DNA of 64,000 bases, from positions 134,177 through 198,176 of the forward strand of contig JBAYVE010000001.1 of assembly GCA_041674765.1 (NCBI GenBank). Direction: 5' to 3'. Position numbers and translations under genes: made by a program. The notes under the pieces are model-generated. The model made no database searches. It saw only the letters and a list, made by a program, of their open reading frames with translations, and had not been told where the DNA came from. The stretch is from Patescibacteria group bacterium. Lineage in GTDB: Bacteria > Patescibacteriota > UBA1384 > XYA2-FULL-43-10 > 1-14-0-10-43-13. Positions 48,056 to 62,950 of the stretch are shown here, piece after piece; the stretch's first letter is position 1, and every line of letters starts with the position of its first letter.

Positions 48056-48535
48056 TTGGAGGACAAAAGAATGGTTGCAAGAAAGAAAAACAAAAAGAAA
48101 AAAACAGGAGTCGACCTATTAAACGAAATTTCAGATAAACTCATCACTTGGGTCGGCACTACCAATTCGATTATTATTCACACGATCATTTTCATTTTTT
48201 CATTTATCTCTCATTGGATTTTCAATATTTCTTTTGATCTCGTGCTACTGATTCTTACTACAGTCGTTTCGCTGGAAGCTATTTATCTTGCCATCTTTAT
48301 CCAGCGATCTGTAAACCAGCAGGCCACCCGTCTGACCGATGTTGAGGAGACCCTCGATGATGTTGAGGAGGCCCTTGATGACGTCGAAGAATCTCTGGAC
48401 GAAGTTGAGGAATCAATCGATGATGTCGAAGAGAGTATTAGCCAGAAGGAAACAAGCGCGAATTCCAATACCGAAAAACGTCTGGAAGAAATAATTAAAG
48501 AGCTAAAAGCACTTCAGACCAATATGAAGAAATAA
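48056..48535 (+). CDS. DUF1003-like membrane protein with an acidic heptad-repeat C-terminus
   Basis: Two TM helices. Five tandem 21-nt repeats (48340-48445) encode DVEETLD/DVEEALD/DVEESLD... Confidence 0.5.
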   Translation: MEDKRMVARKKNKKKKTGVDLLNEISDKLITWVGTTNSIIIHTIIFIFSFISHWIFNISFDLVLLILTTVVSLEAIYLAIFIQRSVNQQATRLTDVEETLDDVEEALDDVEESLDEVEESIDDVEESISQKETSANSNTEKRLEEIIKELKALQTNMKK

Positions 48536-57414: not shown

Positions 57415-57960
57415 ATGAGACCAAACTATAAACCAAATTTTACCAACCGTCCGAATCATATTCAGCAAGATGATAGTTTTTATTTCCTTACTGTCCGAAC
57501 TGTCAATGCCCAGTGGTTTTTGCAGCCTGACCCCTACAAGCAGATTGTGTTTGACAAAATCCATGAAAAAATCAAGAAGTTTGGCTATCAGCTTATTGCA
57601 TTTGCGATTCTCAATAACCACTATCATTTGCTTGTAAAAATAGTCGATTCAAAGAAGATCGCTAAGTTTATGAACGAATTAAACGGAGCAAGTGCCAGAG
57701 AAATAAATAAGGCTGATTTTGTCATCGACCGCAAAATTTGGTGGAATTACCTCGACCACGTTATTCGAGACGAAGCTGACTTTTTCAAACATTTAAATTA
57801 TATCCACCAAAACCCGATTAAACATGGACTAACAAAGGAATTGGACTATAAATTCTCAAGCTATTCTGCTTGGGTGAGGAAGAAAGGCGTGGAATATCTA
57901 AATCATTCGTTTGAGAAATATCCGGTCGTAGATTTCAAAACATTCAACGACGAATTTTGA
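57415..57960 (+). CDS. REP-associated tyrosine transposase (RAYT; IS200/IS605-like HUH Y1 transposase)
   Basis: HUH motif NNHYHLLVKIV and a C-terminal YIHQNPIKHGL motif (the RAYT Y-x-x-NP(V/I)(K/R)xGL catalytic-Tyr region). Flanked by REP arrays. Confidence 0.85.
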   Translation: MRPNYKPNFTNRPNHIQQDDSFYFLTVRTVNAQWFLQPDPYKQIVFDKIHEKIKKFGYQLIAFAILNNHYHLLVKIVDSKKIAKFMNELNGASAREINKADFVIDRKIWWNYLDHVIRDEADFFKHLNYIHQNPIKHGLTKELDYKFSSYSAWVRKKGVEYLNHSFEKYPVVDFKTFNDEF

Positions 57961-58003: not shown

Positions 58004-58241
58004 GTAGCCCAGCCTTTAGGCTGATGTCACAATCTAAAGATTGTACTTCCCTAACCGGGACCAACCTTTAGGCTGATTTTACAAATTGAAGCTTGTTATG
58101 TCAGAAACCCTGTAGCCCACCCTTTAGGCTGAACTAACAAACTAAAGTTTGTTCTACGATATAATTGTAGGTCACCCTTCAGGGTGTCGTTATCAAGCTA
58201 AAGCTTGCACTACTTTTTTCCGTAGCCCACCCTTCAGGGTG
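58004..58241 (+). repeat. REP-like tandem array on the 3' side of the RAYT (five units, period about 54-55 nt)
   Basis: Units at 58004, 58058 (degenerate), 58112, 58167 and 58222. All GTAG-led and in the same orientation. Same AAGCTnAAGCTT spacer module. Confidence 0.85.
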
Positions 58242-58281: not shown

Positions 58282-58695
58282 TTGAGTATGATTGTTTACA
58301 AAACAAAATCTAAGAAACTTGGCGGTACTAGCTATAAAGAAGTTATCAAAAAAGCTAGAAAAGCCTATCACGAAATAGAAAAACGGTCAAAAAGAACCGC
58401 CCACCTTCGCTCTGTTTATTTTAAAAAAACAAATATTTTCATAAATCTATTTTGGGATCATCTAGACCAAAAATCGCCTAGAGATAGATTGAGAAGATTA
58501 AAACTTCTGCCTTGTGCTTATGAACTGATTGAAAATTCCGTTCACAAACCAACCTCGAAAATCAACCCAAACAATAAGAATGAAATCTTACATCGTTTCG
58601 GAGGAATTACTACAAATGATGAGTTGTTTTATGTTCAGATAAAAGAAAATAAAGCTGGCCGGAAGGATTTTATTTCAGTATTTCCTGAGGAATAA
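58282..58695 (+). CDS. hypothetical basic protein
   Basis: ORF only. Confidence 0.35.
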   Translation: MSMIVYKTKSKKLGGTSYKEVIKKARKAYHEIEKRSKRTAHLRSVYFKKTNIFINLFWDHLDQKSPRDRLRRLKLLPCAYELIENSVHKPTSKINPNNKNEILHRFGGITTNDELFYVQIKENKAGRKDFISVFPEE

Positions 58696-60477: not shown

Positions 60478-61665
60478 TTAAATAAAACAATCCCTTGAAT
60501 TTAAAATATTGTTTTCCTTGCATTTAAAACAATTATAGTTGCAATTTACTAATTCAATTCCTAAATCCTCAGAATTTAAAAGTATTCTCATCCCTTGTCT
60601 GAGTACTTTCTCTCTTTTTTCTGAAAATTCCGGTTCAAAACCGATTTTCGCCAACATTTTTTCATCAAGTAAATTCCAGCTATTTGGCACAAACTGATAA
60701 TTTTTACGCAAATCCTTTGATATTCTTTCTCTAGGAATTACTATTCCAACAGGATTAGTTTGCCCACAATATCGACATTCGGTTAGTAGTCTTACATCGT
60801 CTTTGAATTCCAAGCAATCTGTTGACTGAAACTCTTCTGTCGCCCAGTAGAACTTTAGTTCTCCAAACTGTGTTCTTATTTCATCAAATTTTTGCCCAAA
60901 AACTTGCGGAAATTTACGATTGATTATTTTTTCACATCTATCAATATCTGGATGACTATTAAGATAGGCGTCAGAAATCTTTTCAAGCATTTTAGGTGAG
61001 ATTGAATAAGGCATTGACCCCACGGCCCATATTCCAGAGGAATGCAGTATAACGAGACAAAAAATAGATCCGGCCTTACTATCAAAAGTCAATAAACAAG
61101 GCTGAGCATCAAAGCATCGTGAAGGGAAATTTTGTTGAAAGCTTACGCCGTATCCCCAAGGCACACTATTGCCGCCATTTAAGACAAAGTTGATTAAGTC
61201 ATGAAAATTCTCCTTGCAATAGGCAACGCCATGTTTGCAAGCTATCGAATTTACTAGACATTTATGTATCGCTCTTAAAAATTTTTCATTAGTGGTTAAA
61301 GTCACGGGATTGTTTAAGAAAAAGGTACCTCCATCTTTATTTAATCCGTTTTCATCAACTCTGGATACGGTCATTTCATCAATGCCTTGTAAAAAAATCT
61401 TATTCTTTTCTCTCTGTCTCTTTTCGTCGCCACCACCTTTTCTTTTCCCCCTAATTCTAGGATTTCGTTGGTAGGCAAGCATCATCATTGGATGACCGTT
61501 CCGTATCCAGACATCAAGTTTGCTGAATTTTTGATTGCAGTCATCGCAAACTAAACCCTTCTCCATCTTATCCTTGCCGCCGATACATTCAGGAATAATA
61601 TGTTCTTGCCCCTTGCAGTTAGAGGTATTATTATCGCACCATAAACAAATATTTTTCTTTTCCAT
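60478..61665 (-). CDS. HNH-endonuclease-domain protein with an uncharacterised roughly 300-aa C-terminal domain
   Basis: N-terminal CLWC...HIIPECIGG...CDDCN HNH/zinc-finger signature. Basic linker. C-terminal domain with no recognisable motif. Confidence 0.55.
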   Translation of the reverse strand: MEKKNICLWCDNNTSNCKGQEHIIPECIGGKDKMEKGLVCDDCNQKFSKLDVWIRNGHPMMMLAYQRNPRIRGKRKGGGDEKRQREKNKIFLQGIDEMTVSRVDENGLNKDGGTFFLNNPVTLTTNEKFLRAIHKCLVNSIACKHGVAYCKENFHDLINFVLNGGNSVPWGYGVSFQQNFPSRCFDAQPCLLTFDSKAGSIFCLVILHSSGIWAVGSMPYSISPKMLEKISDAYLNSHPDIDRCEKIINRKFPQVFGQKFDEIRTQFGELKFYWATEEFQSTDCLEFKDDVRLLTECRYCGQTNPVGIVIPRERISKDLRKNYQFVPNSWNLLDEKMLAKIGFEPEFSEKREKVLRQGMRILLNSEDLGIELVNCNYNCFKCKENNILNSRDCFI

Positions 61666-62069
61666 TAACTGATTTTAGAACTGATTCCTCGCCAATACAA
61701 TCCTTTTATCAATTTTTTCGCCCTAAATTGTGGATTTCAGGGGACGCCTCCACAATTAAATACTGTTTTGGTGATAAGTAATTTTTTGAACCTCAATTCT
61801 TTTTGGCGTAGAATTAAGGAAATAATAAGTGGGAGAAATATGGTTATAGATATTGAACTAACTTTGAATAGATTAGGGCTGGGGAAAATTGCCGATAATA
61901 AATTCCAACTCTTTTGGCTGAGATTTTCTCATTGGGACATTCCCGGTAAATATTCTATTTCTTTTGAAATAAACTGGGTTAATAAAGAGAGGTGGAATAA
62001 AAAATAGTTCGCGAAACCAGTGACCTCTGACTAAGGAATGATTTTTATTATCTTTCAATTATTTCGGGA

Positions 62070-62105
62070 TATTTGAACGATCGTTCAAATATCCCGAAAA
62101 ATGAT
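62070..62105. promoter_or_regulatory. perfect 36-bp palindrome upstream of the 62191 gene (candidate operator)
   Basis: TTCGGGATATTTGAACGATCGTTCAAATATCCCGAA. A related copy lies at 62738-62773. Confidence 0.6.
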
Positions 62106-62190
62106 AAAATATATTCTGTAAGGTTGGTTTTAATTGCAGTTCAATTGTCACTTCATTCATTACAGACAAATAATAAGGAAGGGGGTAAGC

Positions 62191-62736
62191 ATGTATATCA
62201 GTTCAAAAAATTCTGGCAAGATCATGGGGTGGGCGGTCGAATCGGTCCTCGGATTGCTCTATGGCGCGACTATTGCAGTTGGCAAAAAGTTGGATCGAAA
62301 AGGCCTGACTCATTTTTTCAATGGCCACTATGCTGATGCGGGTATCGACAACGTCAAAATCTCTAAAATGGTCTATGATCTTAAGCGAAGTAACTATCTG
62401 GATTTCGATAACTCTGACTCCGTTGTCTTTACCAATAAAGCGAAAATGAAAATTATTGATAAGCTAACAGCTGATTTAAATATTACCAAAAAGTACCATC
62501 TGATTTCCTTTGACATTCCAGAGGCCAAAAGAGCGAATAGAAACCGTTTTCGCAGGGTGATCAAGCGAATGGGATTTAAACAAATTCAAAAAAGTTTATG
62601 GGTCAATACTAGAGATGTCGGCGAACTGGTGGAGGCCGCCGCGATCGAATATAATGTCAATCAATACGTCGCTTATTTCATTTCCGAGAAATCAAATATT
62701 GATCAATTTATTTCTAAAATTATAACCGAGCAATAA
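62191..62736 (+). CDS. hypothetical protein whose C-terminal domain shows a Cas2/VapD-like sequence pattern
   Basis: AAGGAAGGGGG Shine-Dalgarno. C-terminal KKYHLISFDIPEAKRANRNRFRRVIKRMGFKQIQKSLWV fits the Cas2 pattern (hhhYDI...RR..L.K.L...G.R.Q.SVF). No cas1 gene and no CRISPR array nearby. Confidence 0.4.
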   Translation: MYISSKNSGKIMGWAVESVLGLLYGATIAVGKKLDRKGLTHFFNGHYADAGIDNVKISKMVYDLKRSNYLDFDNSDSVVFTNKAKMKIIDKLTADLNITKKYHLISFDIPEAKRANRNRFRRVIKRMGFKQIQKSLWVNTRDVGELVEAAAIEYNVNQYVAYFISEKSNIDQFISKIITEQ

Positions 62737-62950
62737 TTCGGGAAAATAGAACGATCGTTCATATATCACGAATTATTAAGTTAAGACAGTTTTTTAAATG
62801 TTTTATTCAAGTTTGTTCCCAAGTTTGTTGCAGTTAGAATTCATCGGTGATTATTCAATTGCCGGCATTTTTGGCGTAGAATGAAGGAAATATCTTTTCG
62901 CTTTTCGAGCGACAGAGGGGACTCGGAATACTAAATATTAAAAAAATAGT

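Follow-up and report, generated by a model that had tools for sequence, protein, structure and literature searches.

A short PaaX-like protein of Patescibacteria whose gene is bracketed by a pair of its own probable operator sites

What does a Cas2-like protein do between two copies of a long palindrome, without a CRISPR system at hand? The question is raised by a gene of a Patescibacteria group bacterium (assembly GCA_041674765.1), located in a stretch of 64,000 nucleotides of contig JBAYVE010000001.1 (positions 134,177 to 198,176, forward strand), which we refer to as the window and whose numbering is used throughout. The gene lies at 62191..62736 on the + strand (ATG at 62191, TAA at 62734-62736) and encodes 181 amino acids. 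An earlier note on this DNA had described a solo Cas2/VapD-like gene with a strong Shine-Dalgarno sequence, accompanied neither by cas1 nor by a CRISPR array. The gene and its ribosome-binding site (GGAAGGGGG at 62177..62185, 5 nt 5' of the ATG) are as described, and so is the lack of a CRISPR context: when the 65 open reading frames (ORFs) of at least 110 aa in the window were compared with Cas models, the sole match was that of this gene to Cas2 models, and no CRISPR-like repeat array was found in the window. The solo Cas2/VapD-like identity did not stand. Judging from profiles and a predicted structure, the protein is a two-domain, PaaX-like DNA-binding protein, with a winged helix followed by a PaaX-type Cas2-like domain and without the C-terminal effector domain of PaaX. 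We call it mini-PaaX, and we consider it rather probable that it is a short PaaX-type regulator flanked by its own operator sites, which represses its own gene.

The best profile match of the protein is to PF20803, the central Cas2-like domain of PaaX proteins in Pfam (residues 100-169, E=2.4e-17, 63.2 bits against a cut-off of 24). Matches to Cas2 proper are marginal for the Pfam model CRISPR_Cas2 (PF09827; E=4e-5, 24.1 bits against 23.8) and reach 27.8 bits against a cut-off of 24.5 for the NCBIfam model TIGR01573 (cas2), and both span just the first ~40 model positions. The Cas2-like segment that the earlier note had read at residues 100-170 is thus real, and the Cas2 model of Pfam does match it, but PF20803 matches far better, and no VapD-named family appeared in the Pfam and NCBIfam scans at E<=10. 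PaaX_C gave no match either, as the protein stops at residue 181, ~10 residues past the Cas2-like domain. Searches of the PDB by sequence, with the single sequence or a profile, returned nothing significant.

In the structure predicted by AlphaFold2 (AF2), the N-terminal part would be a winged helix (residues ~36-80, encoded at 62296..62430 on the + strand), with a helix at 36-50, a putative recognition helix at 54-66 and wing strands at 70-72 and 77-80. The Cas2-like ferredoxin-fold domain, supported by profiles, AF2, Foldseek and conservation, spans residues ~98-170 (62482..62700, + strand), with strands at 98-107, 130-133, 136-141 and 160-165 and helices at 111-127 and 144-153. The motif S106-F-D108-I-P-E111 ends strand 1 of this domain, and Q133-K-S-L-W137 is also conserved. 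In Foldseek comparisons of the model with the PDB, the best matches are to type II-A Cas2 (5zyf; template-modelling scores 0.59-0.64 on the target), in line with the Cas2 fold relationship that had been suspected, and further matches are Rv0674 of M. tuberculosis (3kfw) and PaaX of E. coli (8a39, 177 aligned columns). The N-terminal half matches the winged helices of DtxR, IdeR and MntR over 78-79 columns with a root-mean-square deviation of 2.3-3.2. What the earlier note had called a 100-aa N-terminal extension does lie before the Cas2 segment, but it corresponds to a winged-helix DNA-binding domain in the model rather than to a mere extension. Neither the Pfam scan nor Foldseek revealed a transposase or recombinase fold.

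The gene is bracketed by two related palindromes. The upstream one, which we denote O1, is a perfect palindrome of 38 bp without a loop, at 62062..62099 with its dyad at 62080/62081; it had been reported as a perfect 36-bp palindrome at 62070-62105, and the perfect 36 bp exist, but at 62063-62098, and extend to 38. Its outer boxes, TTCGGGA (62063-62069) and TCCCGAA (62092-62098), are parted by A/T-rich spacers from the centre GAACGATCGTTC at 62075-62086, and none of 100 dinucleotide-preserving shuffles contained such a palindrome. The downstream one, O2, is a degenerate copy that begins immediately past the TAA stop codon (62737..62772, dyad 62754/62755, and not 62738-62773 as first given for this near-copy). 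It is 85% identical to O1 over 39 nt and forms an imperfect palindrome, in which 13/18 arm positions pair; outer boxes (TTCGGGA / TCACGAA) and centre (GAACGATCGTTC) are retained, and the differences fall mostly in the A/T spacer. These sequences are specific to the gene. The 18-nt half-site occurs four times in the window, always in O1 or O2 (0.06 expected), the centre and the outer-box pair TTCGKGA-N22-TCMCGAA are found nowhere else in it, and no further site exists in the 10 kb past the window end (L128). A common genome-wide repeat, which the earlier note had named as a refuting finding, is therefore rejected for these 64 kb + 10 kb. We also discarded avoidance of CGATCG as a restriction site, since 14 copies occur in the window where 9.5 are expected, and intrinsic terminators, since the arms are preceded by T and followed by A. 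The sole terminator-like match in the region (62844-62865) lies apart from the palindromes.

The same layout is found around homologous genes. We collected loci of two origins, species-representative genomes (47) and metagenomes (80), which left 101 after removal of duplicates, and searched the 270 bp to either side of the gene for two-fold symmetry, counting as sites those with a CG-NN-CG centre and at least 12/20 symmetric positions. Such pseudo-palindromes occur in the upstream flank of 75/95 loci, in the downstream flank of 76/96 and in both flanks of 65/90, as opposed to 13 sites in the remaining 514 kb of fetched DNA. Many of them are perfect palindromes of 40-56 bp. Their centres are CGATCG (119), CGGCCG (18) or CGTACG (16), and the median distances are 48 bp from the upstream dyad to the start codon and 31 bp from the stop codon to the downstream dyad. 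Seven family members at a greater distance, fetched singly, also have matched site pairs in most cases. The nearest relatives of the window gene (L050 and L051) carry TTCGTGA/ATCGTGA boxes, which resemble the TTCGGGA/TTCGTGA of the window. In the literature that we searched, which is incomplete, no paper connects palindromes beside the gene with PaaX-like, Cas2-like proteins of Patescibacteria; a private site pair bracketing each gene, together with a strictly kept Cas2 catalytic-type motif, appears to be new in that literature.

The sites share a common anatomy. Counted from the dyad, positions 1-3 of each half-site are CG plus A, G or T, with the CG invariant; position 4 is mostly A, positions 5-6 form a variable 'inner box', positions 7-12 are A/T-rich without conserved sequence, and an 'outer box' follows at about positions 14-19. 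In 73-93% of loci the four half-sites share one and the same outer box, and across loci the box has low information, in other words it is locus-specific. Arm mismatches are concentrated at positions 4-12; few fall in the outer box and none at the centre, and they show no wobble bias: G.T and A.C mismatches number 33 and 34 in upstream sites and 32 and 34 in downstream sites, where transversion-type mismatches reach 146 and 124, respectively. Because mismatches spare the outer box and the centre and no wobble bias is seen, this anatomy reads as the signature of a bipartite duplex-DNA recognition site and not of a selected RNA or DNA hairpin. In a hairpin under selection, pairing would be kept from one end of the stem to the other, with a preference for wobble pairs on the transcribed strand.

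The four half-sites of a locus also keep a record of how they change. Two-versus-two splits among them are 'direct' in 86 cases (left arms agree and right arms agree), 'symmetric' in 47 (each palindrome self-consistent, the two unlike each other) and 'cross' in 22. The 'direct' excess indicates that the two sites are related as direct repeats, and the 'symmetric' excess that the arms within a palindrome are homogenised. Quasipalindrome-associated template-switch mutation turns imperfect inverted repeats into perfect ones (PMC7202029), and would be a sufficient cause of the symmetric changes, with no need to invoke selection for a hairpin. Between loci, site similarity follows protein similarity (Mantel r ~0.2, p<0.001). 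In the 67 loci with both sites, the inner box (positions 4-7) correlates with the Cas2-like domain when the recognition helix is controlled for (partial r=0.17, p=0.001), and shows no correlation with the recognition helix when the Cas2-like domain is controlled for (p=0.13). This gives a weak hint that a Cas2-like dimer might contact the site centre.

As for the upstream site, its position suggests an effect on transcription. We defined -10-like hexamers as TAnnnT with at least 5/6 positions matching TATAAT. They cluster on the gene side of the upstream dyad, at +25 to +39, with 49 in 75 loci, against 12-13 each on the other side of the upstream sites and on both sides of the downstream sites. 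In the window, a putative extended -10 element of the gene's promoter, TGaTAAAAT, stands at 62102..62110 (+ strand), at +24 from the O1 dyad, and adjoins this family-wide peak. The -35 element and the spacer of that promoter would fall within the right arm of O1 (~62081-62098). Because a -10-like element directly follows it, we take O1 to overlap the gene's own promoter, and such an overlap suggests autorepression by promoter occlusion. A weak alternative is the sigma-70-like match TTGTCA-18-AATAAT (62145..62174, + strand, 10/12 positions); the total of sigma-70-like matches in the region is at chance level. The homologues also differ in their leaders. Many of them (L001, L009, L069, L074, L076, L087 and others) have a TATAAT-like -10 only 6-10 nt before the ATG and no Shine-Dalgarno sequence, and are probably translated from leaderless mRNAs. 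The subgroup of the window gene, with L048, L051, L052 and L058, has a 70-140-nt leader and a strong Shine-Dalgarno sequence.

The downstream site behaves differently. The downstream sites show no enrichment of -10-like hexamers, and a T-run follows only 12/76 of them. They are present with a convergent next gene in 29/34 loci and with a co-directional one in 39/51. Being present regardless of the direction of the next gene, the downstream site is not the operator of a neighbouring promoter, and by this comparison of loci it appears intrinsic to the module. We infer that it is an auxiliary site of the same protein, which might serve cooperative looping or act as a transcriptional roadblock. 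Three loci have a third copy of their locus-specific palindrome 0.3-0.66 kb further downstream: L069 (1379/1990), L051 (4599/4903) and L057 (5288). The segment before the third copy holds a 120-aa Cys-rich ORF in L069 (1511-1873), and a 79-aa zinc-ribbon ORF with a GC-rich stretch in L057; these intervening genes may be cargo under the same control.

The family to which mini-PaaX belongs is large. A word-indexed search returned 146 relatives, all of ~180 aa, from Berkelbacteria and other Patescibacteria, and an exhaustive profile search, with clusters counted at 50% identity, yielded 61 clusters at E<=1e-30 and 1,143 at E<=1e-10, with lengths of ~170-200 aa. Members come mainly from Patescibacteria, often in several copies per very small genome, with at least five divergent copies in each of the metagenome-assembled genomes Berkelbacteria RIFOXYA2_FULL_43_10 and CAYIJI01. 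Paralogues of one genome are ~40-50% identical and have different outer boxes. No relative was found in 2.9 million viral contigs, which led us to reject a phage origin. In close relatives S-F-D-I-P-E is invariant, together with R117, F120, R121, K125 and Q133-x-S-L-W137; in distant members the motif positions are at least 89-98% conserved, and the Asp of FDIPE at least 98%. With such an Asp, the Cas2-like domain is a candidate for nuclease activity. Databases currently name these proteins 'CRISPR-associated endonuclease Cas2', 'PaaX' or 'hypothetical', and the protein identical to that of the window, on a 365-kb contig in NCBI, is entered as 'MAG: CRISPR-associated endonuclease Cas2 [Patescibacteria group bacterium]'. 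None of the three names fits the evidence.

What we observe are the two-domain layout of the protein, site pairs that are conserved and bipartite, and an overlap of the upstream site with the promoter. Binding, dimerisation, repression and the role of the second site complete the model as follows. The N-terminal winged helix would read DNA, and the Cas2-like ferredoxin-fold domain would probably make the dimer, by analogy with the corresponding 'dimerization motif' of PaaX. The protein itself probably binds both flanking palindromes. Either one dimer or two dimers together would recognise the pair of 7-nt outer boxes specific to the locus, ~29 bp apart, across a span made of A/T-rich spacer and the conserved ACG-NN-CGT centre. 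Protein bound to the upstream site would occlude the -35 element and the spacer, and so switch off its own transcription. The downstream auxiliary site would most likely help the protein to bind the two sites cooperatively or to form a loop between them, or act as a roadblock that seals the unit from its neighbours. Among the possibilities raised in the earlier note, a Cas2-derived regulator, here combined with operator sites, is the one that the PF20803 match, the winged helix and the conserved, gene-specific site pairs support.

Several observations weigh against this model. The score for TIGR02277 (PaaX, NCBIfam) is 18.1 bits for a cut-off of 264.55, and the Pfam model of the PaaX N-terminal domain does not match that of mini-PaaX. 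Simple autorepression does not account for a second site after the stop codon, and as a search of the 74 kb around the gene gave no further target site, we would be left, on sequence grounds, with a regulator of itself alone, which has no obvious purpose. At the window locus, O1 ends 91 bp 5' of the ATG, and the second promoter-like match lies between the two. In partial Mantel tests of the outer box against the recognition helix, both domains correlate about equally, so that the reading domain is not distinguished. Finally, R117, R121, Q133, S135 and W137 persist with FDIPE even in distant members. Conservation of the motif to this degree goes beyond the apparent need of a dimerisation scaffold and hints at catalysis or at another function shared with Cas2.

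That last point leads to two readings in which the Cas2-like domain does more than hold a dimer together. The stronger contender, unlikely in our judgement, is a single-chain toxin-antitoxin-like or defence module. Its Cas2-like domain would cleave nucleic acids, as in Cas2 and VapD, and its winged helix would have two tasks, autoregulation of the gene through the palindromes and restraint or targeting of that nuclease. This reading is compatible with the operator model and differs from it in the protein's main function. Across 263 members, close and distant, the Asp of FDIPE and further residues typical of Cas2 show a conservation of at least 90-100%, and the Cas2 models are matched above their curated cut-offs; the same residues could serve DNA binding instead. 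Several divergent paralogues per small genome, each self-contained with its own sites, would also suit such a module, as toxin-antitoxin loci likewise occur in multiple divergent, self-contained copies per genome. However, the 48 clustered loci have no conserved partner gene or antitoxin, the neighbours are housekeeping genes and not defence islands, viral contigs hold no relatives, and synteny between RecO and GlyRS is stable in three genomes. The VapD-type toxin proposed in the earlier note fares no better, for want of both a VapD family match and a conserved partner; the adjacent antitoxin-like ORF that it had suggested looking for did not turn up, as none of the neighbouring ORFs of 70 aa or more is conserved and the 55-aa ORF upstream of O1 has neither a family nor a counterpart in the other fetched loci. 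It is also tempting to speculate that a Cas2-like dimer sits on the CG-NN-CG centre with the winged helices on the outer boxes ~29 bp apart, much as a Cas2 dimer grips the middle of the prespacer duplex between two Cas1 dimers. The module would then keep a Cas2-type 'ruler' for double-stranded DNA (dsDNA) or be a site-specific dyad nuclease, and the private site pair would be a self-contained looping, insulating or addiction unit and not an ordinary operator. The Cas2 motif conserved to at least 98%, the inner-box correlation and the unexplained second site are weak hints in its favour, and we rank it after the nuclease module, as doubtful.

The remaining readings take the palindromes to be something other than operators. 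A small mobile or selfish cassette, with the palindromes as ends and moved by the encoded protein or a host enzyme, was among the possibilities first proposed. The palindrome-gene-palindrome block of ~0.7 kb is indeed kept while neighbours vary in almost every locus (Nudix hydrolases, GlmU-like, RecO, GlyRS, LigA, MraZ and other housekeeping genes), and the closest relatives, 56-62% identical and on short contigs, share no flanking genes and no synteny with the window. Several copies per genome exist, and the upstream and downstream copies behave as direct repeats, with the 86 'direct' against 22 'cross' splits. Against mobility, near-identical copies are absent, those present being 40-60% identical with different boxes; the palindromes are not dispersed elsewhere; the upstream one has a promoter role; neither a transposase or recombinase fold nor a viral relative was found; and the arrangement RecO-[module]-GlyRS, common to three genomes, points to vertical inheritance. 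Mobility of the module is unlikely, and the cassette reading is in our view improbable. Least probable of all is that the palindromes act as nucleic-acid hairpins (5' or 3' stem-loops of RNA, terminators or DNA cruciforms) and not as duplex binding sites. Their stems are long and stable (single-strand O1 -17.3 kcal/mol, z=-6.8; O2 -9.5), many copies are perfect over 40-56 bp, and some differences between upstream and downstream copies are symmetric within palindromes (47 'symmetric' against 22 'cross'). Yet G.T mismatches are no more frequent than A.C and transversion types dominate, the mismatches fall in the spacer and spare outer boxes and centre in a bipartite and not a helical pattern, and the 'loop' is a palindrome in every case (CGATCG, CGGCCG or CGTACG), a feature not called for by RNA structure. 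T-runs are as rare after downstream sites as stated above, no Rfam family matched above noise, so that an RNA motif was discarded, and template switching can explain the symmetric changes.

The other ORFs of the window are housekeeping genes, e.g. RecA, FtsK, primase, RNase J and alanine racemase, and the gene's neighbours code for an HNH-domain protein, M23 peptidases, a methyltransferase and a hydrolase. The 64-kb window holds no paralogue of mini-PaaX, no paa-type family is among those listed for it, and of the defence-system models only those of Cas2 match the mini-PaaX gene. A 25-bp direct repeat, TTTTTGGCGTAGAAT(T/G)AAGGAAATA, is present at 61800-61824 and 62868-62892, with 24/25 positions identical; these are its only two copies in 64 kb, 1068 bp apart, and they flank a small ORF and the entire palindrome-gene-palindrome unit. 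The first copy bears a promoter-like TTGAAC-17-TAGAAT (61786-61814) and the second lies ~70 bp 5' of an M23 peptidase gene; the repeat may have arisen by duplication of a promoter or be left over from the segment's arrival. The small ORF (55 aa, 61840-62007, + strand, with a GGGAGA ribosome-binding site) stands between the first copy and the upstream palindrome and is also predicted by a public gene caller (L128 9650-9817). This ORF matches nothing in Pfam or PADLOC and lacks a counterpart among the other fetched loci. The divergent upstream neighbour (60478-61665, - strand) encodes a Cys-rich protein of 395 aa. An HNH_5 endonuclease domain (E=1e-6) lies at its N-terminus, the remainder has no family match, and the protein has no match in PADLOC either. 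Further upstream, ~4 kb from the mini-PaaX gene, an IS200/IS605-type Y1 transposase gene (PF01797, 181 aa; 57415-57957, + strand) is directly followed at 58004-58155 by three 44-nt repeats with a spacing of 52-56 nt, each holding two short hairpins (CAGCCTTTAGGCTG and ACAATCTAAAGATTGT). These are probably an insertion sequence (IS) end or a related hairpin array, and an unannotated 137-aa ORF (58282-58695) comes after them. Four 21-nt tandem units at 48331-48433, in a coding region, give an Asp/Glu-rich heptad repeat unrelated to mini-PaaX.

What the locus stands for goes beyond the single gene of the window, as the palindrome-gene-palindrome layout recurs in most of ~100 related loci. The mini-PaaX family is large and misannotated, and its two-site architecture, conserved but unexplained, occurs in bacteria that are little understood. 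The regulators and promoters of uncultured Patescibacteria are almost unknown, and each of these loci provides a protein, its probable site and a promoter. About 65 natural protein-site pairs of differing specificity constitute a test set for the recognition codes of winged helices, and such pairs might be used as orthogonal repressor/operator parts. The family also bears on the origin of Cas2, with a Cas2-like domain whose catalytic-type motif is intact within a predicted sequence-specific dsDNA-binding protein outside a CRISPR context.

How does mini-PaaX compare with known systems? PaaX, the regulator of phenylacetate catabolism in E. coli and Pseudomonas (PDB 8a39, 3l09; TIGR02277), has the same order of winged helix and Cas2-like domain. 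E. coli PaaX reportedly recognises TGATTC(N27)GAATCA and represses its own Px promoter by steric hindrance (PMC9493321, review). The predicted site of mini-PaaX, TTCGGGA-N22-TCCCGAA, likewise consists of short inverted boxes more than 20 bp apart, in a 7-N22-7 instead of a 6-N27-6 layout. In contrast to PaaX, mini-PaaX has no C-terminal helical effector (phenylacetyl-CoA) domain (181 aa against ~305-316), stays far under the equivalog cut-off (18.1 against 264.55 bits), has no paa genes nearby, and has sites with a conserved CG-NN-CG centre and a second one past the stop codon. Presumably E. coli PaaX does not have FDIP at the position where mini-PaaX keeps FDIPE. With Cas2 (PF09827, TIGR01573) it shares the ferredoxin-like fold, the conserved Asp that closes strand 1 and the strand motif Q-x-S-(L/V)-(W/F/Y). 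It differs from Cas2 by its fusion to a winged helix, by the limitation of the profile match to the first ~40 model positions, by the lack of cas1, any other cas gene or a CRISPR array in the window, and by the housekeeping genes that are its neighbours in the 48 clustered loci. Stand-alone Cas2-like nucleases of the VapD and BPSL1038 types also have a Cas2-like fold outside CRISPR loci, as mini-PaaX does, but the latter matches no VapD family, has no adjacent antitoxin-like partner, and possesses a DNA-binding domain with predicted cognate sites. As for the regulatory layout, the gal, lac and deo systems have autoregulated repressors with auxiliary distant operators and looping, and RTP of B. 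subtilis is a winged-helix dimer with sites beside its own gene. Mini-PaaX would resemble them as a helix-turn-helix protein that acts as a dimer, with its primary site on the promoter of its own gene and another cognate site hundreds of bp away. In mini-PaaX loci, unlike those, the second site is just past the regulator's own stop codon, the pair brackets that gene alone, and paralogues, several per genome, each have a private site sequence. Mini-PaaX is, in sum, a short variant of a PaaX-kind regulator that lacks the effector domain, and most probably it works by a modified form of a well-known mechanism of repression.

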